Positions 17,253 to 62,094 of a DNA stretch of 62,737 nt are shown here, one piece after another. The notes under the pieces were generated by a model that worked only from the letters and a program-made list of their open reading frames with translations, did no database searches and was not told the origin of the DNA. The DNA is from a virus. Position numbers and translations under genes: made by a program. The stretch's first letter is position 1. Every line of letters starts with the position of its first letter. The DNA is taken from positions 1-62,737 of IMG/VR virus record IMGVR_UViG_3300037752_000040; one strand, written 5' to 3'.

Positions 17253-17437
17253 AAAAGCTCCCCCCAAACGCAGAGCGCGTCGACCTAGACGGCACGCCGT
17301 TTATCAAACACACAGACCCGGTTTCGGGAAGAGTTCGGTTTCAGGTCGACCATGCAACGGCACTCGCCCGTAAGCCTGTCTGCGCTCGCTACGCGAAGAA
17401 TAAAACGCGGGTCGCCAAGCGCGGGGAGGTCGTATGA
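17243..17437 (+). CDS. hypothetical protein
   Basis: 64-aa ORF coupled on both sides. Confidence 0.4.
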   Translation: MGMKKLPPNAERVDLDGTPFIKHTDPVSGRVRFQVDHATALARKPVCARYAKNKTRVAKRGEVV

Positions 17438-18114
17438 GCGATTGCATCTCCCTTCCCGGCAAGATGTCTTATGTCGGCGGCAAACTGACAGAACGCGTGG
17501 ACCTGCCAAAGATACGGGACCGCCTAGTGGTTAGGCATGCTTTGTGCGTTGAGTGCAATCACATTTTCACTTTCAGAAATAGAGTACGAGTACTGAGGCC
17601 GATTCCGTACAGGTTTGTCTGCAAAGGATGTCGCGGAAGTTCTAGGCCCTTGGACTTTCATGGCGAAAGTCACAGTAGAGAATACCGAGTGTACAATGGA
17701 ATGATCTCTCGGTGTGATAACGAGAAAGACGACCACTATAAAGATTATGGCGGTCGCGGAATTTCTATCTGCGATTACTGGCGCGCAGCATTCCTAAATT
17801 TTTTAAACGACATGGGGCGCTCGCCTTCTCCCGAGCATAGCATAAACCGCATTGATAATGACGGGAACTATGAACCAGGGAATTGCGAATGGGCGACGGT
17901 GACAAGTCAGAACCGCAACAAGCGCAACACTTACTGGATCACACTCTACGCCGAGACGCGATGCCTCGCAGAGTGGTGCGAACTTTTCGATTTACCCTAT
18001 TCGAGAACCTACCATCGTTTGAGACGAGGGTGGGACATCGAAACTGCCTTCTTTGAGCCCTGCATGGCTTCAGAAGGTCGACTACCTGTGGTGTTCGAAA
18101 AACCACAGTCCTAA
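17434..18114 (+). CDS. HNH-type homing endonuclease
   Basis: Signature YGGRGISICDYW...INRIDNDGNYEPGNCEWATVTSQNRNKRN. AT-rich island. Confidence 0.65.
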   Translation: MSDCISLPGKMSYVGGKLTERVDLPKIRDRLVVRHALCVECNHIFTFRNRVRVLRPIPYRFVCKGCRGSSRPLDFHGESHSREYRVYNGMISRCDNEKDDHYKDYGGRGISICDYWRAAFLNFLNDMGRSPSPEHSINRIDNDGNYEPGNCEWATVTSQNRNKRNTYWITLYAETRCLAEWCELFDLPYSRTYHRLRRGWDIETAFFEPCMASEGRLPVVFEKPQS

Positions 18115-25589: not shown

Positions 25590-25658
25590 GTAAAAAATAT
25601 CTCTAACAAAACCGCTACTGCGGTATCTTACGCGCTGTTGCGCAAGGAGAACAATAAA

Positions 25659-37918: not shown

Positions 37919-38033
37919 CGTGCGCGTCAGGGCGTTTCGGTTCAGCACCGTCATCCGCTGTCATTCGGCCCTCGTTCGAAGCCGTAAATTCGACGGTTCG
38001 TCACTTTCCATACGAAAATTGGAGATCCACGCT

Positions 38034-38849
38034 ATGAGCACCGAAAGTGCTGAGACAAGCATTTCGCATCTGTTTGCGCCCCAAAATGCAGCGCCGTCTA
38101 CGGAACAGGCCAATCCGTCGCCCAGCGAGCAGCCGACGCCTCCAGATGTGGAGCCTTTCGCTCAGCCAGTAACCGAGGCAAATCAGCCGCAACAGCAGCA
38201 GCCCGTTCCCGGCCAGGAACAGCCGCCTGCCCAGCAGCAACAGCCTCAACAGCATCAGGTGCCTCTTGGCGAGCTGATCGATGAGCGTAAGCGCCGCCAG
38301 CAAGCTGAAGATTTACAGCGTAATCAGCAGCGGGAAATCGATCAGTTGAAGCAGATGATGGCTCGGTTCAGCCAGCCTCCGCAACAGCCACAACCCCGGA
38401 TCGATCCTCTTGAAGATCCGGACGCCTTTGTTCAATCCATCGAAAACCGGATGGAACAGCGTTTCCTGAACATGACCCTCAACGAGTCAGAGCGCCGTGC
38501 GCGCGATGCTCATGGGGCAGACGCCGTTGAAGCCGCACTTGAGGCGGCTCAGCGGTCAGGATTCGCACAAGCCTTCGTCAGCAAGCCGGACGCCTATGGC
38601 GAAATGGTGCGTTGGCACAAGGCTCAGCAGCTCCAGGAGACGATCGGAGAAGATCCGAACGCCTACAAGGAAAGGCTGAAGGCAGAAGTAAAGCAGCAGT
38701 TGCTTGCGGAAATGAGGCAGGGCACGCCGCCGCCATCGAACATCACTCCTCCCTTGTCGTCAGCCACGCGCGCAGACCCTAACCAGCCTGCCGCGATTGG
38801 CTCTGACAAGGACTTTTTCAACGACATGATGAATCGCAAGCGAGGCTAG
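38034..38849 (+). CDS. scaffolding protein
   Basis: The ATG at 38034 follows GGAG. Q/P-rich and helical, positioned between portal and capsid. Confidence 0.55.
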   Translation: MSTESAETSISHLFAPQNAAPSTEQANPSPSEQPTPPDVEPFAQPVTEANQPQQQQPVPGQEQPPAQQQQPQQHQVPLGELIDERKRRQQAEDLQRNQQREIDQLKQMMARFSQPPQQPQPRIDPLEDPDAFVQSIENRMEQRFLNMTLNESERRARDAHGADAVEAALEAAQRSGFAQAFVSKPDAYGEMVRWHKAQQLQETIGEDPNAYKERLKAEVKQQLLAEMRQGTPPPSNITPPLSSATRADPNQPAAIGSDKDFFNDMMNRKRG

Positions 38850-38853
38850 TTCA

Positions 38854-40038
38854 ATGGCTACGACCACGACCCCGACCGACCTGATTGAGATCAGGTATCG
38901 GCGGGAATACTGGCGCGAATATGTGCGCCAGTCCGGCTTCATGCCCTATATGGGCGGGGGGAATGAGGGCATCAAATCCATCATCCACACCGCCTACGAA
39001 ATGACGACCAGCGGCAAGTCGCTGACGATCCCGTTGGTCTCCGCCCTGAGCGGCGGCGGCGTTCGCGGTAATACGCGTCTGTCCGGTCAGGAAGAACAGC
39101 TCGGCAAGCACAGTCACAGCGTCGCGGTGCAGATCGCCCGCCACGGTGTCGAGCTTTCCGAGCAGGACGAGCATTATGATTTCTCCAATGCTCGCGAGGC
39201 GGTGCGCCCGCTGCTTCAGGAATGGTCCCGTGTGCTTCTGCGTGACCGCATCATCGATGCGCTCGGCACGGTCGCTTATTCCTCAGTCAGCGCTCCGTCG
39301 TGCTCGACGTTCTTCGATCCCTTGAACTTCAAGGAGAACGTTGCGGCAAGCACGGCCCAGAAGGACACATGGACCGTCAACAACGTTGATCGTGTTCTGT
39401 TTGGGTCGGCGAAGTCAAACTATAATGCGACTTTCGCGACAGCGACAGCGAACATCGACAACACAGCCGACAAGCTGGATGCCGATCTCGTCTCGCTGCT
39501 CAAGGAAATCGCCAAGGATACTGCCACGAACGCCCGCACGAACGGCACGCCCGCCATTCGCCCGGTCCTCGACCAGTATTCCGAGAATGGCCGTGAGTAT
39601 TTCGTGCTGTTCTGCGGCTCCCGCCCGTTCCGTGACCTGAAAACGGACTCGACCATCCGCCAGGCCAATCGCGAGGCTCGCGCTCGTGAAGCTAGCGGCA
39701 TGGACAAGAACCCGATCTTCCAGGACGGCGATCTGATCTGGGATGGCGTGATCATTCGCGAAATCCCGGAAATCCCGGTCATGGAAGCTCAGGGTGCAGG
39801 CACCGCTGCGATCGACATCGCACCGGTCTTCCTGTGCGGCTGTCAGGCGGTCAGCGTTGGCTGGGGCAACATGCCCGAATTCCGCGCCAAGAAGGAAGAT
39901 GACTATGGCCAGTTCACTGGCATCGGCATCTCCGAAATGGCAGGGGCCAACAAGATCCAGCGCAAGGACGGCGTGTCCGGCACGCAGTACGACAATGGCA
40001 TGGTGACAGGTTTTGTCGCAGCCGTTGCTTCGGCATAA
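38854..40038 (+). CDS. major capsid protein
   Basis: 394 aa after the scaffold gene. N-terminal block EYWREYVRQSGFMPYMG resembles DUF4043-type podovirus capsid proteins. Confidence 0.7.
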   Translation: MATTTTPTDLIEIRYRREYWREYVRQSGFMPYMGGGNEGIKSIIHTAYEMTTSGKSLTIPLVSALSGGGVRGNTRLSGQEEQLGKHSHSVAVQIARHGVELSEQDEHYDFSNAREAVRPLLQEWSRVLLRDRIIDALGTVAYSSVSAPSCSTFFDPLNFKENVAASTAQKDTWTVNNVDRVLFGSAKSNYNATFATATANIDNTADKLDADLVSLLKEIAKDTATNARTNGTPAIRPVLDQYSENGREYFVLFCGSRPFRDLKTDSTIRQANREARAREASGMDKNPIFQDGDLIWDGVIIREIPEIPVMEAQGAGTAAIDIAPVFLCGCQAVSVGWGNMPEFRAKKEDDYGQFTGIGISEMAGANKIQRKDGVSGTQYDNGMVTGFVAAVASA

Positions 40039-40062
40039 CCGAGCCAGGAAAGGAAAACTGAA

Positions 40063-40521
40063 ATGGCTACGTATGAAACTATCCTTTCCGGTCGCCGTGG
40101 CGAGGTCATGGGACCCGGTTGGGGACGCGAGGAGATTGTCGTCACAGCGATCGTCGCTCTTCCGTCTGCGGCGGTCAGCAATGCCGATGATGACACTGGC
40201 CTGTTTTATGTGCCGGCTGGCTTCGTTGTGACCGGCATTACGGCTTCCGCCACCGATCTTGACGGCGCCACGACCAATGCTCTGCGTATCGACATTGGCG
40301 ATGCCGACGATGAAAATCGTCTTATGGCGGCAGCGGATCTGTCGTCTGCAATCAGCTCGACCTTGGCCCTCGCCGGGCATCTCTACAAATACACGGTGAA
40401 GACGCAGATCCGTGCTTATGTAGAGACCGCTGCAACCACGGCAGCCGCCGGAACGCTGAAGGTGTCCCTGAAGGGCTTCGTCGATCCGGACTTCAGCACA
40501 ACTGCTATCACGGCCGCATAA
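40063..40521 (+). CDS. head decoration / cement-like protein
   Basis: 152 aa immediately after the capsid gene. Ala/Thr/Ser-rich C-terminus. Confidence 0.4.
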   Translation: MATYETILSGRRGEVMGPGWGREEIVVTAIVALPSAAVSNADDDTGLFYVPAGFVVTGITASATDLDGATTNALRIDIGDADDENRLMAAADLSSAISSTLALAGHLYKYTVKTQIRAYVETAATTAAAGTLKVSLKGFVDPDFSTTAITAA

Positions 40522-40529
40522 GCCTGAGT

Positions 40530-41156
40530 GTGCTTCAAACAGTAACGCCGCGGTGGCGCAGTTGCATCATCGCGGCGTCCGGCCCGTCCATGTGTCAGGA
40601 CGTGGCCGATCAGTGCAGGGGCCGCAATGTGATCGCGGTCAACGACACATACAAGCTGCATCCATGGGCCGATGTGCTTTATTGCGGCGATGGCGAGTGG
40701 TGGCATGTGCATAAGGGTGCGCCAGAGTTTGAAGGCGAGCGCTGGGCGGCTTATAATGACAAATATCGCCCCGAAGAGATGCGGAAGGCTGCCGAGCTTT
40801 ACGATATAAAGCTGATTTACGCGATGTATGGCGACGGATTTTCGCCAAAGCCGGACACACTGCACTACGGGGCGAATTCGGGCTATGCGGCCGTGAACCT
40901 AGCGCTGCATTTCGGGTGCAAGACGATCGTTCTGACCGGCTTCGACATGCGCTATATCGATGGCAAGTGTCACTGGTTCGGGCTTCATGCCTTCGGGAGC
41001 AATCCGAAGAGCGATTTTACCGACTGGCTGACTCGCTTTGAGGGCGCAGCCGCGACAGTGCCGGACGATGTGCGGATCGTGAACGCGACGCCGGGCAGTG
41101 CGCTGAGATGTTTCGAGATGATGGACCTGAAAGACGCATTGGAGTTGATTGATTGA
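40530..41156 (+). CDS. DUF115 / MptE-like (Maf-type) putative glycosyltransferase
   Basis: GTG start. IIAASGPSM and GANSGYAAVNLALHFGCKTIVLTGFDMRY match the two conserved DUF115 blocks. Confidence 0.6.
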   Translation: MLQTVTPRWRSCIIAASGPSMCQDVADQCRGRNVIAVNDTYKLHPWADVLYCGDGEWWHVHKGAPEFEGERWAAYNDKYRPEEMRKAAELYDIKLIYAMYGDGFSPKPDTLHYGANSGYAAVNLALHFGCKTIVLTGFDMRYIDGKCHWFGLHAFGSNPKSDFTDWLTRFEGAAATVPDDVRIVNATPGSALRCFEMMDLKDALELID

Positions 41157-42211
41157 TGTTCGCTAAGCGGTTCCAGCATTTAGGCGAGATCGAGCGCAAG
41201 CGTATCGTGATGCCGGACAATACGCGAATGCGCCTCAACCGGCTGGAGCGTCCGCAGCCTTGGGAAGATGAACTGCAACGCCGGATCGTTGAGACATTCC
41301 GGCCCGATCAGATCCAGCAATACCCGAATTATCAGCCATTTTACGAGCGGCTTGCCGAGTTTGCCGGTTGCGGCACGGACGAACTTGTCGTTGGTGCGGG
41401 GATCGAGGAATTCATCCGCAATCTGTTCATGCTCTGCATCGAACCGGGCGACAAGGTGGCCTACCTCTGGCCGACATGCGCGATGTTCGATGTCTATGCG
41501 CGGGTGTTTCAGGCCGAGCCGGTGCGGATCGTGACAGATCCGAGGAAAACGTTCAACGGCTTCGACTTGGCCTTGAGCCTGCCGGAGGATCTGAAGCTGT
41601 TGATCCTCACCCAGCCGGGCCAGCCTGTCGATGCGATGCTCCAGCCGCATGATATCAGAAAGCTTGCGGACCTGTGCAAGGAACGCGGCGCGGTGTTGGC
41701 GCTTGATGAAGCCTATCATGGGTTCGGAGCTTTGACGGATGTATCCCGGCCGCGATATGACGATCATGTCGTCAGTTTGCGGACCTTCTCCAAGGCGTTC
41801 GGAGCAGCTTCCATCCGCCTAGGCTATGCTACAGGCAACGGCCGGATCATCCACGCCTTGAATGCCGTCAGGCAGTCCGGCGAGGTCAGCGCATTCTCGA
41901 TGCATGCCGCCACGGTGCTCATGGACCATCACGAAAGCCATGTGAAGCCTGCCATCAGGGACATCTGTGACGGCAGGGACTGGCTTCGCAACATGGTGCA
42001 GGAAGAACTCGGCCTTCGGGCATGGGGCCATCACGCCAACCATGTCCTGATCGAGATGTCGAACGCGGCGGAAGTGGCCAAGCGCCTTGCCGGCAAGGGC
42101 GTGCTGGTGAAAGCAGGCTTTCCGGCCCCGATCGACAGCCACATGCTCGTCACCTGCGGCGATCGCGACCTGATGACAACCTTCTGCGCGGAGTTGATGG
42201 CAGCCCTATGA
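41153..42211 (+). CDS. class I/II PLP-dependent aminotransferase (HisC/CobD-like)
   Basis: 352 aa. LALDEAYHGF and the PLP-lysine block LRTFSKAFGAASIRLGY. ATGA overlaps at both ends. Confidence 0.75.
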   Translation: MMFAKRFQHLGEIERKRIVMPDNTRMRLNRLERPQPWEDELQRRIVETFRPDQIQQYPNYQPFYERLAEFAGCGTDELVVGAGIEEFIRNLFMLCIEPGDKVAYLWPTCAMFDVYARVFQAEPVRIVTDPRKTFNGFDLALSLPEDLKLLILTQPGQPVDAMLQPHDIRKLADLCKERGAVLALDEAYHGFGALTDVSRPRYDDHVVSLRTFSKAFGAASIRLGYATGNGRIIHALNAVRQSGEVSAFSMHAATVLMDHHESHVKPAIRDICDGRDWLRNMVQEELGLRAWGHHANHVLIEMSNAAEVAKRLAGKGVLVKAGFPAPIDSHMLVTCGDRDLMTTFCAELMAAL

Positions 42212-42873
42212 GCGAGCATGTATTCACCGAGACAGACGGCAAACTGGAGTTCGTCGGTAATTTCGACGCGCTTTACCTTGAGGAAGATGACCCTTGGGGG
42301 CAGAGCGCCGAAGGCGGCGACATGGCGACTTATTACACAGCCAGTCGTACCAATTTGTACAGGGCAATCCTCGCAAACACCAGATCCATGATCGTTGCCG
42401 GACTTGATATTGGCTGTGGTCACGGTTGGTCAACGGATCATCTTGCCAAGACCGGCGGCACGTGGGCAGGATTAGACATTTCGTTCGAGGCAATCGAGGC
42501 GGCGCTGGAAATACATCCGCTCCATGATTATTTTCACGGCGATATCCGCAACTATGACTGTCTCCCGCGCCATCATGAGAACTTCTACGATGTTGTCGTG
42601 CTCTCGGAAATCCTCTGGTACGTTCTGGACCGGCTGGACGATGCAATGGCCAATGCCGCACGCTTCTGCGCTCCTGGCGGACTCCTGTGCGTCTCACAGG
42701 CGTTCCTGAAAGGCGAGCAGCGCTACGGTGCCGAGATCGCCAACGGCTTCCACGGAGCCTTGAAGCTGTTTCTGGAGCGCTTCCCGTCATTGACGCTGGT
42801 CGAAGCGACATACGATGACAGCAACAGCCTTGCCCACAATCACGGGCTGATGATTTTCAGGAAGCCTGCCTGA
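42208..42873 (+). CDS. class I SAM-dependent methyltransferase (NodS-like N-terminus)
   Basis: The ATG at 42208 forms an ATGA overlap. DPW motif followed by motif I GLDIGCGHGWST. Confidence 0.7.
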   Translation: MSEHVFTETDGKLEFVGNFDALYLEEDDPWGQSAEGGDMATYYTASRTNLYRAILANTRSMIVAGLDIGCGHGWSTDHLAKTGGTWAGLDISFEAIEAALEIHPLHDYFHGDIRNYDCLPRHHENFYDVVVLSEILWYVLDRLDDAMANAARFCAPGGLLCVSQAFLKGEQRYGAEIANGFHGALKLFLERFPSLTLVEATYDDSNSLAHNHGLMIFRKPA

Positions 42874-43736
42874 TGCTCACCGAAGCCACGAAGGCCAATC
42901 TACGGCGCAAGGCAGCTTTCGTCGATCGGGTGCAGATGCGTGATGGCGTTCCGATGCCGTCATTGATTGAGCTGAATCTGACCGAGCTATGCAATCGCAA
43001 ATGCGTATTCTGCCCGCGTGTCGACGGCAATGTTTACCCAAATCAGGCGCTGCACATGTCGCTCGATCTGGCCAGGAAGATTGCAGACGATCTGCGCGGC
43101 ATCGAATACCGCGGCACCGTGACCTTGTGCGGGTACGGCGAGCCGATGCTGCACCCGAAATTACCGGAACTGGTTGCCTTGTTCGGTGATATTCGCGTCG
43201 AGATCGTCACCAATGGCGATTTCCTTGATGCCAACCGCATCCGGCAGCTTGCCGAGGCCGGCATCGATTATTTCATCGTCAGCATGTATGACGGCCCCGA
43301 GCAGATCGAGAAGTTCGAGGCAGCATTCGCCGAGGCGGAATGCACAAATTACCTGCTTCGCGACCGCTGGCATACCGAGGCTGACGAATTCGGGCTGAAG
43401 CTGACGAACCGTGCCGGCAGCGTCGATATCGGGCCGCAGGAACCCGTCGATCAGTCGCGAGCCTGTTTCTACCCATCATATCAGATGATGATCGACTGGA
43501 ACGGCGACGTTCTCTTGTGCCCGCAAGACTGGTCGAAATTGCATCGTCACGGCTCGCTGGCGTTCCAGACCGTAATGGAAGTCTGGACATCCAAAGCGCT
43601 CCACAAGCGCCGCATGCAGCTTGTCGCTGGTCGCCGATGCACCGCGCCGTGCAATGGCTGCAATACGGACGGCCAGCTTCACGGCTTCGTGCATGCCGAC
43701 ATCTGGAACGCCAGCGGATCGCGGCAGGTTGCCTGA
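42873..43736 (+). CDS. radical SAM enzyme with C-terminal Cys-rich (SPASM/twitch-like) region
   Basis: CX3CX2C motif (CNRKCVFC). C-terminal cysteines CFYPS...LLCPQDW...CTAPCNGC. Confidence 0.75.
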   Translation: MLTEATKANLRRKAAFVDRVQMRDGVPMPSLIELNLTELCNRKCVFCPRVDGNVYPNQALHMSLDLARKIADDLRGIEYRGTVTLCGYGEPMLHPKLPELVALFGDIRVEIVTNGDFLDANRIRQLAEAGIDYFIVSMYDGPEQIEKFEAAFAEAECTNYLLRDRWHTEADEFGLKLTNRAGSVDIGPQEPVDQSRACFYPSYQMMIDWNGDVLLCPQDWSKLHRHGSLAFQTVMEVWTSKALHKRRMQLVAGRRCTAPCNGCNTDGQLHGFVHADIWNASGSRQVA

Positions 43737-44462
43737 GTGATCATCAGTAATGCAATCCCGAAGGCGGGGGGGCATCTTCTTTACGCTTATCTCGGCGCGT
43801 GCGGGTTGAAGAAAGAGCCAGGCGAATTGTATGCCGATGTCGATGTTGATGGTGATGGCCATGCATGCCGCCGAGAAGTCACGGGCAGCCAGAAAGACAT
43901 CTGGGACGGGATTGCCGTTCGCGATCCCGAGACCATGCTGGCGGACATGGAACGCAAGGCCGTCATCAACGCGCATGTGCATGATAAGATCGATCTTTCC
44001 GGACATGCCGTCGCGTTCATGTATAGGAACCCGCGCAACCTGCTGTACTCCTATGCGCGTTTTTCCGCTGCCGATTTCAACTGGAATCCTCCGGTCAGGG
44101 AGCCGAGCGACAAGGCGGTGCGCTCGCGCATGCAGCCGTCTTACATGCGACAGATCGTTGGACAGTGCCGTTGCTTTCACGGATGGCTTTCAAAATCCGA
44201 TATCGCGGTCAGGTTCGAGGATTTCATCGCCGATCCGGACACGACGGGCAAGGCGATCGCCGCTGCGCTCGGCATCGGTTTCGCCGATCCGTCCAAGGTC
44301 ATTGGAGAGTCGACGCCCTGGGTAACGTTGAGATATCGCGGAACATGGTCAGGCCAACTCAGCGACTGGCGACAGGTCTGGAACGATAGGCTTGACGCAC
44401 AGTGGAGGGCCGCAGGCGGTTACGAAGTCGAAGCGGGCTACGGATATAAAAATAAATGCTGA
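43737..44462 (+). CDS. sulfotransferase-like protein
   Basis: The GTG start directly follows the upstream TGA. 5'-PSB-like IPKAGGH, 3'-PB-like YRNPRNLLYSYARF, and VRFEDFIADP. Confidence 0.6.
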   Translation: MIISNAIPKAGGHLLYAYLGACGLKKEPGELYADVDVDGDGHACRREVTGSQKDIWDGIAVRDPETMLADMERKAVINAHVHDKIDLSGHAVAFMYRNPRNLLYSYARFSAADFNWNPPVREPSDKAVRSRMQPSYMRQIVGQCRCFHGWLSKSDIAVRFEDFIADPDTTGKAIAAALGIGFADPSKVIGESTPWVTLRYRGTWSGQLSDWRQVWNDRLDAQWRAAGGYEVEAGYGYKNKC

Positions 44463-45481
44463 CCGTTGTTGTGGGTCACGGCCGATCCACCGAGGGCCAG
44501 GGCTGGGGACCGCTGATCGACAGCGCTGATCGCGTCGTCCGGATGTGGAACTGGCACTGGTGCGACATGAAAGATTACGGCACCCGCTACGATTGGGGTC
44601 TGATCGAAATCCATCCTTGTCTCACACAATGGAAACAGCACAACAAGTGCCAGCCGAGCCAGGGGTGGGTCGCATCGCTGCTGATGGAAGATCGGGATTA
44701 TCGGTTTCCTGACAACACCTCGATCATAGACCAGTGCGAATTCTTGAACTCCATTCCGGAGCAGTTCCAGGGGTGCGGCGAGACCGGCACATGGCAGTTG
44801 ACCCGCGGAGGAGTGGCGGCGTGCTGGGCGATCTCGACGGCACAGGAAGGCGACAGCCTGATCCTTGTCGGCTTTGACGTGATCAAGGATGGCGTTGCAA
44901 TGGCGGTCGATGAAGCCTTCAGCCCTGAATACATGGCGTCGGAAGGCTTTTTTGGCATCAGCACTTTCAAGGAAGGCGCGACCAAGGAAGGCAACCACGA
45001 CTATCCCGCCGAGCGCTATCTGATCGAGACGATGGGGAAATGCGCCGGCGTTGCCGTGGTCTTTGCAGAAGACGAATGGCCTTTGAATATCAAGCGCGTT
45101 CCAAAGCAGAAATTCATCAAGCGAATTTTGACCGGAGATAATGAATCCATGAAGTTCCGTTATATCGGCGTGTACCCGGCCGGGCAACAGGAGATCACGG
45201 CGTATGGCTGCAAGTTCACGCCATTTACCGAGGTTGAAGTGCCCGAGCAATGGCTGGAAAAGTTCACCGGAAACAGGTTTTTCGAGCTTGTCGTGGACTA
45301 TGAACTCGTTCCGGTAGAGCCGGAACCGGAAGAGGAACCGCGCAATCGCCTGCTCGATGCAATGCCTTCGGATAAGGATGATCTCATTGCCCTGGCAGGA
45401 GAACGCGGCGTCAAGATCGATAAGCGATGGAATGCCGACAAGATCGCCGCCGCCATCGTGGACGCTGAAAATGGCGAATGA
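44456..45481 (+). CDS. sialyltransferase-like / second DUF115-like glycosyltransferase with C-terminal HeH-like motif
   Basis: VVVGHGRS...DRVVRMWNW and TRGGVAACWAI...LILVGFDV resemble the CstII/GT42 or DUF115 layout. The C-terminus DDLIALAGERGVKIDKRWNADKIAAAI is SAP/HeH-like. Confidence 0.5.
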   Translation: MLTVVVGHGRSTEGQGWGPLIDSADRVVRMWNWHWCDMKDYGTRYDWGLIEIHPCLTQWKQHNKCQPSQGWVASLLMEDRDYRFPDNTSIIDQCEFLNSIPEQFQGCGETGTWQLTRGGVAACWAISTAQEGDSLILVGFDVIKDGVAMAVDEAFSPEYMASEGFFGISTFKEGATKEGNHDYPAERYLIETMGKCAGVAVVFAEDEWPLNIKRVPKQKFIKRILTGDNESMKFRYIGVYPAGQQEITAYGCKFTPFTEVEVPEQWLEKFTGNRFFELVVDYELVPVEPEPEEEPRNRLLDAMPSDKDDLIALAGERGVKIDKRWNADKIAAAIVDAENGE

Positions 45482-45662
45482 GCTTCGTCTGGTCCCCGAT
45501 CAGGCCGCGGCCTCGATCGCCGCACGGATCAAGGTCATTGAGAACTGTAAGACCATGATCCGCGAGACGGTCAAGCGCTACGACGGTCTGAAAGCCTTCG
45601 AAGATCAGCTTTCAGGGCTTGGCGTCAAGGATGCCGTAGACCGGCTCATGAAAGAGGATTGA
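45471..45662 (+). CDS. hypothetical small protein
   Basis: ATG at 45471 (MANELRLVPD), 63 aa. Confidence 0.4.
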   Translation: MANELRLVPDQAAASIAARIKVIENCKTMIRETVKRYDGLKAFEDQLSGLGVKDAVDRLMKED

Positions 45663-45666
45663 GCCG

Positions 45667-46074
45667 ATGGCGATACAGTATTCTGATGGAGTGAGAAACG
45701 CAAAGCTTGACGCCATCGAAACCACGATCAGCACATCGCCGATCATGCGTATTCGCACCGGCACGCCGCCTGCGGACTGCGCAACGGCTGACAGCGGGAC
45801 TGTGTTGGCAACGCTCCCACTGCCGTCAGACTGGATGGCGGCTGCATCAGGCGGATCGAAGGCAAAATCAGGCACATGGCAGGATGCATCAGCGGATGCA
45901 GCGGGAACGGCTGGGCATTTTCGCATCTACGATTCAGGCGATACGACCTGCCACATGCAAGGCACGGTCGGTGCGACCGGAAGCGGCGCAGACATGGAAG
46001 TTGATAACGCTGTCTTCGCATCCGGCCAGCAATTCACAGTTACGACATTCAGCATTGCCGATAATAACGGTTGA
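45667..46074 (+). CDS. virion-associated hypothetical protein
   Basis: 135-aa ORF in the structural operon. Confidence 0.5.
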   Translation: MAIQYSDGVRNAKLDAIETTISTSPIMRIRTGTPPADCATADSGTVLATLPLPSDWMAAASGGSKAKSGTWQDASADAAGTAGHFRIYDSGDTTCHMQGTVGATGSGADMEVDNAVFASGQQFTVTTFSIADNNG

Positions 46075-46080
46075 TCATAA

Positions 46081-46563
46081 GTGCTCGGCTTTGCCCCTCT
46101 CGCAGCGCTTCCTCTTGCAGATGACACCACCGGGCGCATTGCATCGGCAGCCATCACCGAGGCAGCAGATACGCTGGCCTCGACTGCTGTCCTGTCGATT
46201 ACTGGCGCAGCGTCTATCACGGAAGCGGCAGATACTCTCTCCGCAACCGCGGCTCTCCAGATATTGGCCGATGCTGCAATCACTGAAGCGGCAGACACGC
46301 TTTCCTCAACCGCTACCAAAGAAATCTTCGGCGTTGCGGTCATCACCGAAGCGGCTGATACGCTCAGCGCTACGGCGCTCAAGGTCATCAGGGGGCGCAT
46401 TCGAGGCGTTACGAGCGGAGCAACGCGGGCAGATGGGTCATTTGGCGGCGCTGTGCGAGCCGCTGGCGTCGCCGGGGGCGGCAACAGATCGGCCGGCTCG
46501 ACCGGTGGTGGTGTGCGCGCCGGAGGCACGACGGGCGGCGGTAGAAGGGCATATGGAAACTGA
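46081..46563 (+). CDS. virion protein with four ITEAADTL repeats and a Gly-rich tail
   Basis: GTG start, 160 aa. Four 21-22-aa repeats. Confidence 0.5.
   Translation: MLGFAPLAALPLADDTTGRIASAAITEAADTLASTAVLSITGAASITEAADTLSATAALQILADAAITEAADTLSSTATKEIFGVAVITEAADTLSATALKVIRGRIRGVTSGATRADGSFGGAVRAAGVAGGGNRSAGSTGGGVRAGGTTGGGRRAYGN
46153..46392 (+). repeat. four tandem repeats of about 63 nt, coding
   Basis: The ITEAADTL(A/S)(S/A)TA units begin atcaccgaggcagcagatacgctg, atcacggaagcggcagatactctc, atcactgaagcggcagacacgctt and atcaccgaagcggctgatacgctc. The differences are synonymous. Confidence 0.8.
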
Positions 46564-46892
46564 TGCTTGAACCTGGAATAATCTATGTCGAAACGGAGCT
46601 TCGGCTTACGGCCGCATTTACCGATAGCGATGGAACGGCAATCGATCCTGATACGGTGACTTTCAGCATATTCTCGCCTTCCGGCGGTGAGACGGCATAT
46701 GTCTACGGCACTGATGATGAAGTGCAGAAGGCGTCAACGGGAAATTATACAGCAGATATCGTCCCTGACGAAGCAGGCCGTTGGCATTTCCGTTGGAAAA
46801 CCACAGGAACCGGCAAGGTGATCGCGCTTGAGGGCAATTTCATCGTCAGAAAGTCAGCCTTTTTTGACGATCCATTCACGGATTATTGCTGA
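46563..46892 (+). CDS. structural-module hypothetical protein
   Basis: 109 aa, ATGA-type overlap. Confidence 0.5.
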   Translation: MLEPGIIYVETELRLTAAFTDSDGTAIDPDTVTFSIFSPSGGETAYVYGTDDEVQKASTGNYTADIVPDEAGRWHFRWKTTGTGKVIALEGNFIVRKSAFFDDPFTDYC

Positions 46893-47263
46893 TGTCGAGA
46901 ACCACGACGGAACTTGCAACCGAAGTCATGCGGTTGCCGAACTGGATCTCCCAGGACGAGACGCCGGATTCAGCGGATGACGCGCATATCAAGAGAATTT
47001 ATTCCGACTGGTTCGCCTATGCGCAGATGCAGGAACGCGAAATCGTCTATTGGTCGGAAGACACGATCCCGAACGAAGCCTTTCTTGCCATCGTCCGGAT
47101 CATAGCGGATATGGTCGGCCCGTCATTTGGCGATCCCGCGCCGGTCGAGATCGATGTGGAGACCGGAATGCAGGTTTCAATGGGCAAGAAGGGCTGGAAC
47201 ATGCTGCGCCGACTGACCGCGCGGGAATCGTCCGGTCTCAGCGCTCCGGGGACTTATTTCTGA
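46886..47263 (+). CDS. possible head-tail adaptor
   Basis: 125 aa directly upstream of the gp10-like gene. The call is by position only. Confidence 0.35.
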   Translation: MLMSRTTTELATEVMRLPNWISQDETPDSADDAHIKRIYSDWFAYAQMQEREIVYWSEDTIPNEAFLAIVRIIADMVGPSFGDPAPVEIDVETGMQVSMGKKGWNMLRRLTARESSGLSAPGTYF

Positions 47264-48696
47264 TGGGGGAGCCGGTCTCGATTTCGCTTGGTCTGCGCAC
47301 CAATCCGGCCCGCAACAGGCAGGCAGGCTTTGCCCAGCTCATAAACTGTTTTGCGGAGGAAATCGGGCAGGATGGCAAAACGACGGTTGCCATTTATGGC
47401 ACAGAGGGATTGACCAACTTCGGATCGGCTTTGTCTGGCGGCGGCATCAGGGCCATGATCGATGTGGACGGCACGTTGTATGCTGTCGCCGGGCGTAACA
47501 TTTACGCTGTAAACAGTTCTGGCGTCGGCACCCTTATTGGAGGCGTGCCGACAGACGGACCTGTTTACATGGCTAAGAATCGTCGAGTTCCCGCGCAAAT
47601 TGGCTTGGTCTCTGATGGCCTTTATCTCGTTATCGACACGCTCGCCAACTCCGTCACGGAAATCAGTGATCCGGATTTGCCAAGCCCGGTCTCGTTTTCG
47701 ACGTTGGACGGGTATGGCGTCATACCCGTTGTCGGCGGGGAATTCTATCTTACGGGATTGGATGACTTCACAACGATCGATGGTCTCGATTCTGCGAGTG
47801 CAGAGGCTTATCCAGACGCCATATTGCGATCAATGGTTCTTGAGCGTGAGTTGGTTCTGCTCGGTGAAGACAGTTTAGAGTTTTTCCAGAACACAGGCGA
47901 TCCCGACTTTCCCTTCACGCGAACCCACGCAACTGAAACTGGTTGCTTGGCTGGTGATAGCGCTGCGCTTGTCGATACCCCGTCTGGCAAAACGATCCTC
48001 TGGGTTGCTCCTGACCACACGGTTCGCCAGATGCGCGGGTACTCGGGAGAGGTTGTCAGCACCAACGAGATCGAGAAATTGATCCGCGAGTTGGATGAAG
48101 CCGGAAATGCCTCTCAGTTGAAGGGGTTCGGATGGGCGTCAGCGGGTAGATTTTTCTATTGCCTGACAAGCGGAAGTTTTTCCAGAGTTCTAGACGGCAA
48201 AACAGGGCATTGGCACAAGCGAGAGTCCTACGGCTTAGATCGCTGGCGCGTCAGCGCTGTCACTCGATTTGGTAACAAGATTGTAGCGGGCGATTACGAA
48301 TCCGGCCAGCTCTACACGATGGATTTCAGCACCCATAAAGAGGGGAGCAACCATTTGGTGCGGGAATTGATCACTCCGACCGTTCATGCATTCCCGTACG
48401 GGATTAAGGTCAATGGGCTTTATATCGATGCTGCGACTGGCGTGGGTCTGAACTCCACAGACAGCCATGATGGCAATCCGAAGCTCTTGATCTCAACATC
48501 TCGCGATTCAGGCTATTCCTGGTCAACCGAGCGCGAAAGAGAACTCGGAACGACTGCGCAATATCGGCGTATCAAGCCGATATACCGGCTCGGTCGATTT
48601 GGCCACAAGGGAATGCTGGTGCGGGTAAGGATGTCCGCACCAGTCGAGAGCGTTATGATTCAGATGGCCGTCGATTTCGATCAGTTGGCTGCGTGA
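47263..48696 (+). CDS. tail hub / packaged-DNA stabilisation (P22 gp10-like) protein
   Basis: The ATG at 47263 overlaps the upstream TGA. 477 aa, similar in size and position to P22 gp10. Beta-rich. Confidence 0.4.
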   Translation: MGEPVSISLGLRTNPARNRQAGFAQLINCFAEEIGQDGKTTVAIYGTEGLTNFGSALSGGGIRAMIDVDGTLYAVAGRNIYAVNSSGVGTLIGGVPTDGPVYMAKNRRVPAQIGLVSDGLYLVIDTLANSVTEISDPDLPSPVSFSTLDGYGVIPVVGGEFYLTGLDDFTTIDGLDSASAEAYPDAILRSMVLERELVLLGEDSLEFFQNTGDPDFPFTRTHATETGCLAGDSAALVDTPSGKTILWVAPDHTVRQMRGYSGEVVSTNEIEKLIRELDEAGNASQLKGFGWASAGRFFYCLTSGSFSRVLDGKTGHWHKRESYGLDRWRVSAVTRFGNKIVAGDYESGQLYTMDFSTHKEGSNHLVRELITPTVHAFPYGIKVNGLYIDAATGVGLNSTDSHDGNPKLLISTSRDSGYSWSTERERELGTTAQYRRIKPIYRLGRFGHKGMLVRVRMSAPVESVMIQMAVDFDQLAA

Positions 48697-48697
48697 C

Positions 48698-49387
48698 TTA
48701 AATACGTTTCCATGTTTTGCGGTTTAGAATGCACCAAATCGTACATTTTGATACGTGGAAACGGCCCGCAAGTTCAGGAATGCTCAATGCGCCTTCCAGG
48801 CTGCGAATTTCCAGCACGTCGTTAACTGACAGCTTCGCCCTTACAGTTCCGTGCTGAAGTTTGTCTGATTCATTTTCGACGGGGGTCGCCCATCGCAAGT
48901 GATTAGCTGTACAGCACAGTGGATTTCGTAAGCACGAATGAGCAACCTGATGATCAGGTGATGGCGGCGGGCCGTGCCTATGCTCGCAGACTATGCGCAT
49001 AACATAGCAATTTTTCCCGTCCACCTTAAGAGAAGCATAGTCTCCTGATTTATTGAATGGCCAGACTAAGCATTCGTCGCCGTTGTAAGGCAGAACGACT
49101 TGCTTTAAATAGTCGAGAGCGGTTCCAGGTGGGTTTCTGGTCGCAGTGACCGCGCCAGTCCGTAACAGGCGACTGTAATGGATGTCGCAATAGCCTTTTG
49201 CGGTATGAGGTTCGCCACAATTTGGGTAGGTGCATGTTCCTCGTGCTTTGCGTATTCGAGGTATGAGCGGGTCGCCATGTTTACGCCAAGCATCGTAATG
49301 CTTAGTGCACCACCCTCTCGCAATACGAGGCTTGTCACAGCCTTCGACAGAGCATAAACGTTCGGCGGGCATATCGGACCTCCACAA
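48698..49387 (-). CDS. HNH homing endonuclease inserted in the structural operon
   Basis: Repeated C..C/H Zn-finger modules (CSVEGCDKP...GWCTKHY; CTYPNCGEP...GYCDIHY) and the HNH core HQVAHSC...CCTANHLRWATPVENESDK. AT-rich and on the opposite strand. Confidence 0.7.
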   Translation of the reverse strand: MWRSDMPAERLCSVEGCDKPRIARGWCTKHYDAWRKHGDPLIPRIRKARGTCTYPNCGEPHTAKGYCDIHYSRLLRTGAVTATRNPPGTALDYLKQVVLPYNGDECLVWPFNKSGDYASLKVDGKNCYVMRIVCEHRHGPPPSPDHQVAHSCLRNPLCCTANHLRWATPVENESDKLQHGTVRAKLSVNDVLEIRSLEGALSIPELAGRFHVSKCTIWCILNRKTWKRI

Positions 49388-56164: not shown

Positions 56165-57826
56165 ATGCCTGATTCAGTCGCTATCCTGCCGCCTGGCTGG
56201 CGTGCTCTTGACGCTAACGGCGATCCCTTCACGGATGCCGTTTTGTCGTTTTTCGACGCCGGCACGTCGGACACCCTTGAAGTCTTTTCGGATTCTGGAT
56301 TATCCACGTCCCTCGGGGTAACGGTAGACTGCAACGCAGGCGGCGAGCCGGTCACGAGCGGCAATGTCCCGACGTTGATTTACACCGGGACAGACCCGTA
56401 CAAGATTACGATTTCGTCGACCATCGGCGGCTTTACGCGAACCTTCGATAACGTCAAGGGCGCGCTCGATACATCAGCGTTTCTGACATCTGCCGCCGTT
56501 GCCGACCAGTCCGTCGTCAATATCTCCGCTAACCGTTCCATCTTAGCCGCAGACAAGGGCAAGCTGATCAACGTGAACTGCTCCGGCGGCGCGTTGACGA
56601 TGACGCTCGCAGACGCCGCGACGCTCGGCGACGGGTTTTTCGTCGGCATCCGGCATGCTGGCACGGCAAATCAGGTCAAGATCACCGGAGACGGCACAGA
56701 CACATTCGCCATTCCCGGAGCCAGCCCGATAGGGTTCTCGCTTACCGGCCTCGGCCATACCGTCTGGTTAGCCTGCGACGCCACGAACTTCAAGATCCAT
56801 TCCGAGTGCCCGCCGCTGATCGGTGGCACGATCGGCGTTATCGTCATTGCGGACCGGCTGTCAACGCCGCCAGGATCGCCAACGCCCGGCGCGCGGTATA
56901 TCGTTGGGTCGTCCCCAACGGGCGACTGGTCTGGTTTTGCTCAGCACGACATTGCCGAGGCGGACGGGTTCGGCACATGGTTCAATTACACCCCCGCAAC
57001 AGATAGCGGTTGGATCGCCTACGTACAGGATGAAGATCTGAGTTATCAGTTCAACGGGTCGTCATGGCGTCCGATGGTTGCCTCCATCGGGGCCGCAAAC
57101 GGACTGGTTATCGTCAACAACTCCGGCACCCCGACGACCTCGATTGATGTTGACGCAACCGAAGCAGTCCTGACGGATTCACAGGGGATCGGCATCAGGG
57201 TCAGTTCAATCGACCTCACGGTTGCTTGTGCGGGAACTGGTGCAAACGGCCTCGACGCTGGATCGCTTGCGAATAATACATGGTATCATTTTTATATCAT
57301 CAGCGACGGCGCAACGACGGCCGGACTCGCGAGTACATCGGCAACGTTGGCGACGTTGCCGAGCGGGTATACTTATAAATACCGGGTCGGGGCGATCAGG
57401 ACTGGCGGCAGCGCGACGTTCACTCGGATCAGACAGGTCGGCAACCGGGCGCAGTACGTGGTTGTAACAAGTTCTACGACGCCAAACGCGCCGATCATGG
57501 ACACAGGTATAGCCGGAAGCACCACCGTCCCCACATGGGAAGCGGTGGCGACGGGCGCATATGTTCCGCCGACCGCCACATGCATCACAGGGTTCGTCTC
57601 GTCTACAACAGGAGACGATGATTTTATCGTTGCTCCAAATAATAGTTACGGGGCGATAGCCTCTGCAACCAATCCGTCGCCCGTGCAAAATCAAGGAGTA
57701 GCTGGATATAACATAACCATTCCGTTCGATTTTGTCCTGGAGAGTTCCGATATCTATTGGGCGGCCAATACAGCAGACGTGCTTATCGCATGCACAGGCT
57801 GGGTCGATGCAGTGAATGCGAATTAG
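56165..57826 (+). CDS. tail fibre / tailspike
   Basis: 553 aa. The N-terminus ILPPGWRALDANGDPFTDAVLSFFDAGTSDTLEVFSD resembles the conserved podovirus tail-fibre N-terminal domain. Confidence 0.6.
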   Translation: MPDSVAILPPGWRALDANGDPFTDAVLSFFDAGTSDTLEVFSDSGLSTSLGVTVDCNAGGEPVTSGNVPTLIYTGTDPYKITISSTIGGFTRTFDNVKGALDTSAFLTSAAVADQSVVNISANRSILAADKGKLINVNCSGGALTMTLADAATLGDGFFVGIRHAGTANQVKITGDGTDTFAIPGASPIGFSLTGLGHTVWLACDATNFKIHSECPPLIGGTIGVIVIADRLSTPPGSPTPGARYIVGSSPTGDWSGFAQHDIAEADGFGTWFNYTPATDSGWIAYVQDEDLSYQFNGSSWRPMVASIGAANGLVIVNNSGTPTTSIDVDATEAVLTDSQGIGIRVSSIDLTVACAGTGANGLDAGSLANNTWYHFYIISDGATTAGLASTSATLATLPSGYTYKYRVGAIRTGGSATFTRIRQVGNRAQYVVVTSSTTPNAPIMDTGIAGSTTVPTWEAVATGAYVPPTATCITGFVSSTTGDDDFIVAPNNSYGAIASATNPSPVQNQGVAGYNITIPFDFVLESSDIYWAANTADVLIACTGWVDAVNAN

Positions 57827-58518
57827 GCGGTTACAGCATAAGCCAGTCTTCTGGCTGAATCCTTGAACTGCGTCAGCTTTCCGCCCTTCCAGAGTTCATG
57901 ACGGGGCTGGATCGCATTGATGGATGATGCATGCAATACGTTGTGAATTACCGGCTCTGGCCAGACGCCAAGCGTTCTGACCTTGTGCTCCCAAACTCTG
58001 GCCAGGTCAAAATCAATGGGAGCTGTGCGCTGCGTCTTCCATTCGATGAACCGCCGCGCACCCGCAGGCGTGATCAGGTAAGATCCCGTATTCATGGGGA
58101 TGCGCAGATAGCGGACGACTTTATAGCCTCCTGACAAATCCGCCTGAGTGAGAATAATGCGTTTCTTGCGGATCGAGCTTATCCGCAAAATATCGAAAGG
58201 CAGGTCGAGACTGAGGATTTCTTCCAGCAGATCGGGGAATTCCGGCTTGAGCCGCTCGTCATCTTCAAAGACAAGCCCCGGCTTGCCGCTCAATTCAACC
58301 TGCCTCATGACGCTGAGGTGGCTTGCGTAGCAGCCTATTTCTCCCCGGCTTAGGTCCGAGCCGGTAAAATATGGCGCGAGCCAATCAGGCAGATCTTTGC
58401 CACGTATTGCTGAGAACCGCTCATACGCAATTCCCAGATCCTTGAACTGACTATCCATGAATTCGAGACGGTCTTTGTCAGCATCAAGATTAATTAAATA
58501 GACCGGAATGTTTTTCAT
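57823..58518 (-). CDS. glycosyltransferase family 25-like (LPS/LOS modification), moron
   Basis: ATG at 58518 (MKNIPVYLINLDADKDRLEFMDSQF...) and GEIGCYASHLSVM match GT25 blocks. AT-rich, opposite strand, between the two fibre genes. Confidence 0.65.
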   Translation of the reverse strand: MKNIPVYLINLDADKDRLEFMDSQFKDLGIAYERFSAIRGKDLPDWLAPYFTGSDLSRGEIGCYASHLSVMRQVELSGKPGLVFEDDERLKPEFPDLLEEILSLDLPFDILRISSIRKKRIILTQADLSGGYKVVRYLRIPMNTGSYLITPAGARRFIEWKTQRTAPIDFDLARVWEHKVRTLGVWPEPVIHNVLHASSINAIQPRHELWKGGKLTQFKDSARRLAYAVTA

Positions 58519-58588
58519 CTGAAATCCCCTCAATATACCCAGAAACAACCTTACAAACCTCTCCCCATGAAAGCAAGCATCAGATAAA

Positions 58589-61941: not shown

Positions 61942-62006
61942 ATCCGCCCGGTTAAACGTCCGGCAAAAGGACGTTTACTGGCTCGCGACAGAAAAATGAC
62001 GGGAAG

Positions 62007-62094
62007 GGCCGGGGCGGGACTCGAACCCGCTCTACCTCCGGAATCGAACCGTTTGACAGCGCTCATGCGCTGCGGCGACCAACGCTCCCCGACC
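62007..62094 (-). other. 88-nt tRNA-like element (non-canonical; possible attP core or degenerate tRNA)
   Basis: On the minus strand: a 7-bp acceptor-type stem GGTCGGG/CCCGGCC (one G-U pair) and a canonical T arm GCGGG-TTCGAGT-CCCGC. A second T-loop-like motif GGTTCGATTCC lies 22 nt upstream. I could not fold a 5-bp stem with a 7-nt anticodon loop, and no CCA is encoded. Confidence 0.4.

Follow-up and report, generated by a model that had tools for sequence, protein, structure and literature searches.

The window analysed here is the whole of the IMG/VR virus record IMGVR_UViG_3300037752_000040, a stretch of 62,737 nucleotides from a temperate phage of the P22-portal type. Six plus-strand genes in its late head operon, at positions 40530 to 45481, encode a set of enzymes which we tentatively interpret, with not quite even confidence, as a glyco-tailoring cassette that makes an aminated, N-methylated and sulfated acidic sugar and moves it to a component of the virion. 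The family or fold of the enzymes, their cofactor-binding residues, the linkage of the genes and their position in the head module can be read directly from the data given below, and the enzyme classes are assigned with high confidence.

Enzymes encoded by the cassette

All six genes abut or overlap, with shared ends at 41153/41156, 42208/42211, 42873 and 44456/44462 and directly abutting ends at 43736/43737. Together with two open reading frames (ORFs) upstream, they are arranged in the following order (protein lengths in amino acids, aa; SAM, S-adenosylmethionine; PLP, pyridoxal phosphate; PAPS, 3′-phosphoadenosine 5′-phosphosulfate):

38854-40038, plus strand: major capsid protein (context; Pfam Phage_capsid_3 at 3e-38)
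40063-40521, plus strand: 152-aa ORF directly upstream of the cassette (context; no family match)
40530..41156, plus strand: 208-aa sialyltransferase-like protein (MptE-like/DUF115, GT42-like), first cassette gene, following the capsid gene and the 152-aa ORF
41153..42211, plus strand: 352-aa PLP-dependent class I/II aminotransferase, HisC-like (Pfam, NCBIfam and PDB matches)
42208..42873, plus strand: 221-aa class I SAM methyltransferase with a DPW N-terminal extension, only loosely NodS-like
42873..43736, plus strand: 287-aa BtrN-like twitch radical SAM enzyme, a predicted sugar alcohol dehydrogenase (BtrN similarity, cysteines)
43737..44462, plus strand: 241-aa divergent PAPS-type sulfotransferase, an accessory outside the core (motifs, AlphaFold/Foldseek, relatives)
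44456..45481, plus strand: 341-aa protein with a predicted sialyltransferase-fold N-terminus, a beta-rich middle and a helical tail weakly resembling LEM/HeH (AlphaFold/Foldseek)

A preliminary description of positions 42208 to 44462 had recognized a methyltransferase, a radical SAM enzyme and a sulfotransferase in a late operon of a phage. Three plus-strand ORFs with abutting or overlapping ends lie at exactly these coordinates, and all three enzyme classes were confirmed, as were the individual traits from which they had been deduced, namely a DPW-containing methyltransferase N-terminus, a PAPS-type sulfotransferase signature and extra C-terminal cysteines in the radical SAM enzyme. The unit was drawn too narrowly, however, since it left out the aminotransferase and the two sialyltransferase-fold genes (40530-42211 and 44456-45481). 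The late operon setting is borne out by the gene order, in which terminase, a P22-like portal, scaffold and capsid protein precede the cassette and a virion structural protein and a head-closure protein follow it. Further genes of the phage code for an integrase, a CI-like repressor, RecT with an exonuclease, and a DNA methyltransferase. A scan of the cassette and its flanks for promoters and terminators gave no excess over shuffled sequence, and the cassette is apparently co-transcribed with the late head genes.

Comparison with the 95%-related contig L004 yielded dN/dS values between 0.03 and 0.21 across the cassette genes (0.075 for the radical SAM gene, 0.027 for the sulfotransferase gene); the genes tested are under purifying selection. 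The two stretches are otherwise 83-99% identical (capsid protein 98%, radical SAM enzyme 95%, sulfotransferase 99%), whereas identity falls to 58% for the methyltransferase (L004 3922-4575 versus window 42208-42873) and to 52% for the 152-aa ORF. This pattern looks like mosaic allele replacement within the cassette.

The radical SAM enzyme (42873-43736) matched the Pfam families Radical_SAM (8.8e-14) and SPASM (2.7e-11, 44 bits), each above its cut-off. When the single sequence was searched against the PDB, residues 29-265 aligned with residues 25-257 of BtrN (E = 3.7e-21), and a profile of the 21-member family matched BtrN over almost its entire length (E = 3.2e-32). Lesser matches were obtained with BlsE (7e-6, partial) and then MoaA, while DesII was marginal (E = 0.19) and the peptide maturase SkfB reached E = 0.42 only. 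Seven cysteines are invariant in the 21 family members. Three of them, C40, C44 and C47, form the CX3CX2C motif, which aligns with CNRTCWYC of BtrN and is replaced by CX9CX2C in some homologues. The other four, C198, C216, C260 and C263, align with four cysteine positions of BtrN that we regard as ligating the auxiliary cluster of that enzyme. The C-terminal half holds one more cysteine, C256, which is not conserved in the family. The invariant motif LTNR(A/G)G aligns with LSNRGG of BtrN, and the invariant Arg180 occupies the position of BtrN Arg152, the proposed base. The phage protein has 287 aa versus about 250 aa in BtrN.

BtrN is a twitch-domain radical SAM dehydrogenase that converts 2-deoxy-scyllo-inosamine to amino-inosose and carries an auxiliary cluster with four cysteine ligands (PMC9012708). 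By sequence, the phage enzyme is likewise of the BtrN twitch type, with four cysteines for a single auxiliary cluster. The seven-cysteine SPASM motif was not found in it, since only four C-terminal cysteines are invariant. Identity as a seven-cysteine SPASM peptide maturase was excluded by these four invariant auxiliary cysteines together with the full-length similarity to BtrN. Because the conserved partner of the radical SAM enzyme is an aminotransferase (see below), alcohol dehydrogenation followed by transamination is the favored chemistry, and the enzyme is predicted to oxidize a sugar or cyclitol alcohol by two electrons prior to transamination.

The sulfotransferase (43737-44462) was less readily placed. 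The protein alone matched Pfam Sulfotransfer_3 at E = 0.0019 with 19 bits against a cut-off of 27, a single-sequence search of the PDB gave nothing useful, and no NCBIfam model matched at E = 0.01 or better, the presence of the NodH model in that library being unconfirmed. Only 8 close homologues were detected among 5.8 billion protein clusters. They keep the segments PK(A/S)GG(H/T) at residues 8-13 and YR(N/H)PR(N/D)xLxS at residues 96-105, with P8, K9, G11, R97, P99, R100 and S105 invariant, and both PAPS motifs, the 5′-phosphosulfate loop PKxGxT and the 3′-phosphate motif RxPxDxxxS, were found in the protein. A profile search of 1.84 billion representatives recovered 6 relatives below 1e-30, 52 below 1e-10 and 480 below 1e-3. 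In an alignment of 54 profile-detected relatives with the window protein, G11, H80, R97 and S105 do not vary, and conservation at P8, K9 and T12 is 90% or higher; Sulfotransfer_1 is matched by 42 of 55 profile-detected relatives and Sulfotransfer_3 by 16 of 55. An AlphaFold model calculated from the alignment of close homologues had a pLDDT (predicted local distance difference test) of 88, and all 50 of its 50 best Foldseek matches in the PDB were PAPS sulfotransferases (probability 1.0, TM-score 0.41-0.59). By model and motifs the protein belongs to the PAPS sulfotransferase superfamily, as a true if divergent member, and no feature ties it to NodH in particular.

The methyltransferase belongs to Pfam Methyltransf_11 (2e-14) and displays the DPW motif in its N-terminus, EEDDPWGQ. 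It failed to reach the cut-offs of both NodS models (Pfam: 23.2 bits versus 24; NCBIfam equivalog: 36.5 bits versus 300). Its best PDB matches were UbiG (1.8e-7), NodS (3ofj, 6.6e-6, residues 25-174) and DesVI/TylM1 (about 7e-5). TylM1 and DesVI are sugar-amine N-methyltransferases (sugar N,N-dimethyltransferases), and the similarity to them and to NodS suggests N-methylation by the phage enzyme. The aminotransferase matched Pfam Aminotran_1_2 at 5.8e-32 and the NCBIfam hisC model with 173 bits, under the cut-off of 276 bits. Histidinol-phosphate aminotransferases were its top PDB matches (5e-20), and the lysine motif SKAFG is present.

The outer genes of the cassette encode putative transferases. 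For the 208-aa protein, the best family match was phrog_4603 ‘alpha-2,3-sialyltransferase’ (3.7e-41), accompanied by a match to Pfam MptE-like below cut-off (6.6e-6). Its family profile detected Campylobacter CstII (1.3e-5) and CstI (1.4e-3) in the PDB, with alignments ending before the catalytic histidine of CstII, and a single-sequence search of the PDB gave nothing useful. Homologues of the 208-aa protein occur alone in 77 isolated phages including D3, PMG1, PAJU2 and CcrColossus. In the listed records of D3-like Pseudomonas phages they lie over or beside head-tail adaptor or connector genes, and two of these records annotate the gene as ‘PmgO’.

The 341-aa protein had no family match, its family profile found nothing useful in the PDB, and the isolated-phage protein search returned no homologue. 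Its AlphaFold model (pLDDT 88) was more informative. Foldseek matched the N-terminal approximately 210 aa to ST6GALNAC2 (3e-6) and then to ST3Gal-I, ST8SiaIII and CstII, and the BFVD matches were viral GT29, DUF115 and sialyltransferase proteins. In related phage cassettes this N-terminal domain exists as a separate protein of approximately 212 aa. The tail has a weak LEM/HeH-like resemblance (BFVD LEM-like match, E = 0.028). Both proteins resemble CMP-sialic-acid transferases by profile or model. Homology to each other is not claimed, since BLASTP between them gave no match and a profile-profile comparison of the two phage transferase families and a bacterial 330-aa neighbor was not significant.

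Recurrence of the core in phages and bacteria

Searches with the radical SAM protein detected over 2300 homologues (E of at most 1e-5), and relatives are encoded by 408 IMG/VR contig stretches. Among cultured phages the picture is different. A megablast search with positions 38000-48000 against GenBank phages gave no match, the radical SAM relatives of isolated GenBank phages are at most about 26-27% identical (for example, the ‘BtrN protein’ of Campylobacter CP220-type phages), and no cultured relative with the cassette was found among the isolated phages searched.

The closest viral loci (53-95% identity) keep the order aminotransferase, methyltransferase, radical SAM enzyme; behind these, a separate gene encodes a homologue of the sialyltransferase-fold domain, and one or two copies of the 208-aa family frequently flank this core. 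Variable genes are interspersed, comprising FkbM-type methyltransferases, a recurrent family without Pfam match, small ORFs, an HNH gene and, rarely, a sulfotransferase. At one locus the neighbor at the position of the Pfam-less family has a weak match to 2-oxoglutarate-Fe(II) oxygenases. For the genomic setting we compared six other phage backbones, four recognized by radical SAM homologues (L001, L084, L085 and L086) and two by sulfotransferase homologues of 55% and 45% identity (P0124 and P0127, respectively). In all six, the cassette is located between the portal gene and the Mu-F/capsid genes, although the backbones vary in terminase (Terminase_6N/6C or Terminase_3) and portal (DUF4055 or Portal_Mu). 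Several phage backbones that are unrelated to one another hold the aminotransferase-methyltransferase-radical SAM core in their head modules.

The functional linkage suggested in the preliminary description was upheld by these loci. Of the close phage loci 11, and of the bacterial loci 18, have a methyltransferase of the window protein’s own sequence cluster near the radical SAM gene. The other phages examined, P0124 and P0127 among them, carry the sulfotransferase homologue immediately behind the radical SAM gene. The sulfotransferase is absent from most cassettes, and it is a rare, optional accessory outside the conserved core, a point that the preliminary description had missed.

A more distant viral branch (L019-L083; 65 IMG/VR loci with radical SAM identities of 37-45%) has other neighbors, namely T4-type RNase H, DUF6433 and 159-aa or 193-aa proteins, and an aminotransferase is nearby in only 18 of the 65 loci. 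It probably represents a different use of the enzyme in marine phages, and it was left out of the functional inference.

A scan of bacteria, restricted to one genome per species, revealed 73 loci. Many belong to Pelagibacteraceae and Prochlorococcus, others to Paraglaciecola, Pseudoalteromonas, Nisaea, Nitrospina, Leptospira, Planctomycetota and Verrucomicrobiota. Closest of the bacterial loci is that of a Mesorhizobium prophage. To count neighbors, the ORFs of 148 homologue loci, including 67 bacterial and 15 close phage loci, were clustered and representatives were annotated. An aminotransferase is present near the radical SAM gene in 50 of the 67 bacterial and 14 of the 15 close phage loci, in the latter upstream of the methyltransferase and the radical SAM gene. 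Genes of ulosonic acid pathways, counted as NeuB, CTP_transf_3 cytidylyltransferases, KdsA-like DAHP_synth_1, KpsF-like SIS+CBS protein and NeuC-like epimerase, occur in 26 of the 67 bacterial loci, and in 20 of the 43 loci of at least 15 kb. In a Paraglaciecola genome, flagellin and FleQ genes adjoin the methyltransferase-radical SAM pair, and a Pfam-positive sulfotransferase was also detected in three marine gammaproteobacterial loci. In bacteria, the core recurs in surface-glycan clusters, many of them with genes for 3-deoxy-D-manno-oct-2-ulosonic acid (Kdo) or nonulosonic acids.

Two features of the window lie apart from the cassette. At least five genes for HNH-type endonucleases were detected, at 5274-5918 (minus strand), 9281-9886 (minus), 17434-18114 (plus), 25638-28238 (plus, N-terminus) and 48698-49387 (minus). 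This count is unusually high, and one of the genes interrupts the late structural operon midway, on the opposite strand. The cassette of the Mesorhizobium prophage is split, between its aminotransferase and methyltransferase genes, by an ORF that faintly matches HNH_5. Furthermore, ARAGORN reported a tRNA-like gene of undetermined identity at 62006-62094 (minus strand) with the four-base anticodon ‘gtca’, which could be a partial attachment-site tRNA of the integrase-bearing element or a frameshift-suppressor-like tRNA.

Proposed function and rival explanations

In the pathway that we propose, the BtrN-like radical SAM enzyme would oxidize a secondary or primary alcohol of a sugar to the carbonyl. 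The substrate would most plausibly be a host-made 2-keto-3-deoxy (ulosonic) acid, either Kdo or a nonulosonic acid of the pseudaminic or legionaminic type. The HisC-like aminotransferase would convert the carbonyl to an amine, the NodS-like methyltransferase would turn the new amine into an N-methylamine, and the sulfotransferase would add sulfate from host PAPS. Finally, the two sialyltransferase-fold proteins would transfer the sugar, activated with cytidine monophosphate, to an acceptor which, judged by gene position, may be a head protein or another virion protein. The order of the reactions, the identity of the sugar, whether tailoring precedes or follows transfer, and the acceptor are points that we infer. 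Our confidence that oxidation, amination and methylation act on a sugar is moderate, and that the sugar is an ulosonic acid moderate to low; the virion as target is a possibility to which we give a little under even weight. Methylation of the new amine is the simplest reading because the co-conserved methyltransferase resembles NodS and TylM1/DesVI, and a virion acceptor is favored because the cassette lies inside the head operons of unrelated phages. In favor of an ulosonic acid we count the pathway genes in the bacterial loci, the flagellin-linked locus and the likeness of both phage transferases to CMP-sialic-acid transferases. Since the window contains neither a synthase nor a cytidylyltransferase for ulosonic acids, the sugar donor must be supplied by the host.

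The capsid protein and the 152-aa ORF are candidate acceptors; for the ORF, scans of Pfam, NCBIfam and PHROG families found no match. Just downstream of the cassette, a 160-aa protein (46081-46563, plus strand; partial match to phrog_38872) contains four imperfect Ser/Thr-rich repeats, ITEAADTL(A/S)(S/A)TA, beneath which Tandem Repeats Finder detected no tandem repeat in the DNA. This protein could be a surface-exposed acceptor for O-linked modification.

Several observations weigh against the proposed function. The missing synthase and cytidylyltransferase genes are among them. The ulosonic acid association is seen in only about 40-47% of the bacterial loci, and other bacterial loci hold generic deoxy-sugar genes (epimerase/dehydratase, DegT aminotransferase, GT2). 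The partner aminotransferase is of class III in 45 of the 50 bacterial loci that have one, while the phage enzyme is of class I/II. The top PDB match of the methyltransferase, UbiG, is an O-methyltransferase. In 23 bacterial loci, a gene for a flavin mononucleotide (FMN) oxidoreductase of the Old Yellow Enzyme type follows the radical SAM gene at short distance (median offset +862 bp). This arrangement hints that part of the family arrives at a different product, for instance by dehydration and subsequent reduction of the enone. Finally, we infer virion-protein modification and its acceptor from gene position, and unrelated ‘moron’ genes commonly insert in head modules. Some of the FMN oxidoreductase loci (L108, L101, L130 and about 20 more) also hold a class III aminotransferase.

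The main alternative, which we consider unlikely, is that the cassette remodels the host surface late in infection, acting on the Kdo of the lipopolysaccharide core, on the capsule or on the flagellin glycan instead of the virion. Such a change could keep progeny off debris or shut out other phages. The bacterial homologues in surface-glycan and flagellin-linked clusters, the lack of donor synthesis genes of the phage’s own and the temperate lifestyle indicated by integrase and repressor are consistent with this explanation. It is opposed by the embedding of the cassette, with its overlapping gene ends, in the late head operon, by promoter- and terminator-like sites at chance level within it, and by unrelated phages that repeat the cassette specifically between portal and capsid genes. 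Moreover, a separate gene near the right end of the window (57823-58548, minus strand) encodes a 241-aa protein matching phrog_2835 ‘glucosyltransferase’ (1.2e-21; moron/auxiliary metabolic gene category). It looks like a GtrB-type lysogenic-conversion gene set apart from the head-module cassette and on the opposite strand, and we counted it in favor of the link to the virion.

The enzymes might instead make a small N-methylated and sulfated metabolite resembling an aminocyclitol or aminoglycoside, released or packaged but not attached to a macromolecule. Oxidation, transamination and methylation are typical of aminocyclitol chemistry. The sole close characterised relative of the radical SAM enzyme, BtrN, indeed uses an aminocyclitol (PMC9012708). 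However, no inosose or 2-deoxy-inosose synthase family is present among the annotated neighbor families, two sialyltransferase-fold transferases are kept in the phage cassettes, and the bacterial neighbors are glycan-assembly genes (GT2, NeuB, cytidylyltransferases). These points make a free metabolite improbable.

Marginally more improbable is a hypermodification of phage DNA by a sugar-like, aminated and methylated base adduct during or before packaging. Aminotransferases and radical SAM enzymes occur in phage pathways for thymidine hypermodification, the cassette adjoins packaging and head genes, and the 341-aa protein ends in a tail with a faint likeness to LEM/HeH DNA-binding motifs. PHROG scans of the larger ORFs of the window revealed, however, no hydroxymethylase, base-exchange enzyme or DNA glycosyltransferase, but only an ordinary DNA methyltransferase. 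The bacterial homologues reside in glycan clusters, and we know of no sialyltransferase-fold enzyme that acts on DNA.

The Pfam SPASM match above cut-off and the location within a head module would also suit a maturase of the SPASM or anaerobic sulfatase-maturating enzyme (anSME) type that oxidizes Ser or Cys of a head protein for subsequent amination and methylation. Enzymes of the anSME type are radical SAM dehydrogenases, too. This explanation is very improbable in view of four invariant auxiliary cysteines versus seven in SPASM enzymes, a length of 287 aa and a full-length similarity that fit BtrN, an E value of only 0.42 for peptide maturases such as SkfB, and bacterial neighbors that are sugar genes without precursor peptides.

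The least probable explanation is the Nod-factor analogy of the preliminary description, in which a NodS/NodH-like pair tailors a chito-oligosaccharide adduct and a SPASM enzyme rearranges or deoxygenates it: the DPW N-terminus, the NodS structure match, the sulfotransferase and the closest bacterial locus in a Mesorhizobium prophage are outweighed by the missed NodS cut-offs, by a sulfotransferase without NodH-type match (with the reservation on the NCBIfam library given above), by scans of the window and related loci that found no nodABC-like families, by a BtrN-like radical SAM enzyme with an aminotransferase partner and a DesII match of E = 0.19, and by the absence of the sulfotransferase from most cassettes. 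The resemblance to NodS and NodH holds for the superfamilies and the DPW motif but finds no support as homology. The SPASM label gives way to a BtrN-type twitch enzyme with a single four-cysteine auxiliary cluster, and radical rearrangement or deoxygenation to the alcohol dehydrogenation to which the aminotransferase partner points. What stands of the proposed adduct is a sugar-type product, reasonably N-methylated and sulfated.

Literature searches found no published description of the module. Each enzyme class and virion glycosylation in phages are known already; what is new is their combination, together with amination by way of a radical SAM enzyme and the presence of a sulfotransferase in the head module of a phage. 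More broadly, many uncultured temperate phages might carry a variable ‘glyco-island’ in the head module that decorates the particle with a radical-SAM-aminated, N-methylated and, in this case, sulfated acidic sugar, a generalization that we regard as rather doubtful. If it were true, this would be, to our knowledge, the first sulfated glycan on a phage particle, and an oxygen-independent radical SAM route to amino-ulosonic acids, common to SAR11, Prochlorococcus and flagellin glycosylation islands, would come to light. Should the function proposed for the cassette hold, a charged sulfated coat could alter adsorption, stability or immune recognition. Virion glycosylation, so far documented in mycobacteriophages, would extend to phages of probably Gram-negative hosts by a different enzymology. 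BtrN-like enzyme, aminotransferase and methyltransferase would constitute an uncharacterised, widespread module, ranging over SAR11, Prochlorococcus, flagellin-linked loci of marine gammaproteobacteria and more than 400 viral contig stretches. It would probably be a new route to amino sugars or amino-ulosonic acids. The six genes are a concrete set for in vitro reconstitution. Even if only the enzyme assignments hold, they correct the Nod-factor analogy.

Comparison with known systems

The closest enzymatic parallel is BtrN with BtrS from the butirosin/2-deoxystreptamine pathway of Bacillus circulans. The similarity extends over the full length (E = 3e-32) and includes CX3CX2C, the four cysteines and LSNRGG. 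Here, too, the radical SAM gene is linked to an aminotransferase gene, and the logic would be the same, from alcohol to ketone to amine; in the butirosin pathway an aminotransferase takes the BtrN product onward. In contrast, genes for aminocyclitol synthesis are lacking here and the setting is glycan clusters and phage head modules. BtrS is a DegT-type enzyme, whereas the partner described here belongs to class I/II (HisC-like) in phages and to class III in bacteria.

A parallel in substrate may exist with 8-amino-Kdo (Kdo8N) of Shewanella, in which the oxidase KdnB acts on a hydroxyl of Kdo (PMC5125639, citing Gattis 2013). KdnB is an iron-dependent enzyme of the alcohol dehydrogenase family (PMC5125639). 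Common to KdnB/KdnA and the proposed pathway is the oxidation of a hydroxyl group prior to transamination on an ulosonic acid, and in some bacterial loci KdsA-, KdsB- and KpsF-like genes are neighbors of the radical SAM-aminotransferase pair. In the Kdo8N pathway, the step of the aminotransferase KdnA likewise follows that of the oxidase. KdnB is not a radical SAM enzyme, no homology is implied, and the link to Kdo in our case comes from the neighborhood alone.

Flagellin glycosylation islands, whose Maf transferases are of the MptE-like/DUF115 kind, and the Campylobacter GT42 sialyltransferases CstI/CstII resemble the cassette in their transferases, which are MptE-like or GT42-like here. Further likenesses are the methyltransferase-radical SAM pairs by flagellin genes in Paraglaciecola and tailoring genes that vary around a constant core. 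Unlike these islands, the cassette is part of a phage head operon, and the window is devoid of flagellin and nonulosonic acid synthesis genes.

With regard to the particle itself, glycosylation of virions by phage enzymes has been reported for mycobacteriophages (Freeman 2023, as cited in PMC12582341). The likeness lies in phage-encoded genes for sugar transfer and tailoring, which there accompany modified virion proteins and here might do so; in the window and the six other backbones these genes are located within the structural operon. The mycobacteriophage systems employ ordinary glycosyltransferases of the GT-A/GT2 type in phages of Actinobacteria. The cassette described here differs from them by its sialyltransferase-fold transferases in company with a radical SAM enzyme, an aminotransferase and a sulfotransferase.

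NodS and NodH, finally, share with the cassette a class I methyltransferase with DPW N-terminus, a PAPS sulfotransferase and the proposed N-methylation of a sugar amine. They differ in that the NodS cut-offs are missed, nod context is lacking and the sulfotransferase is optional in the phage cassettes.

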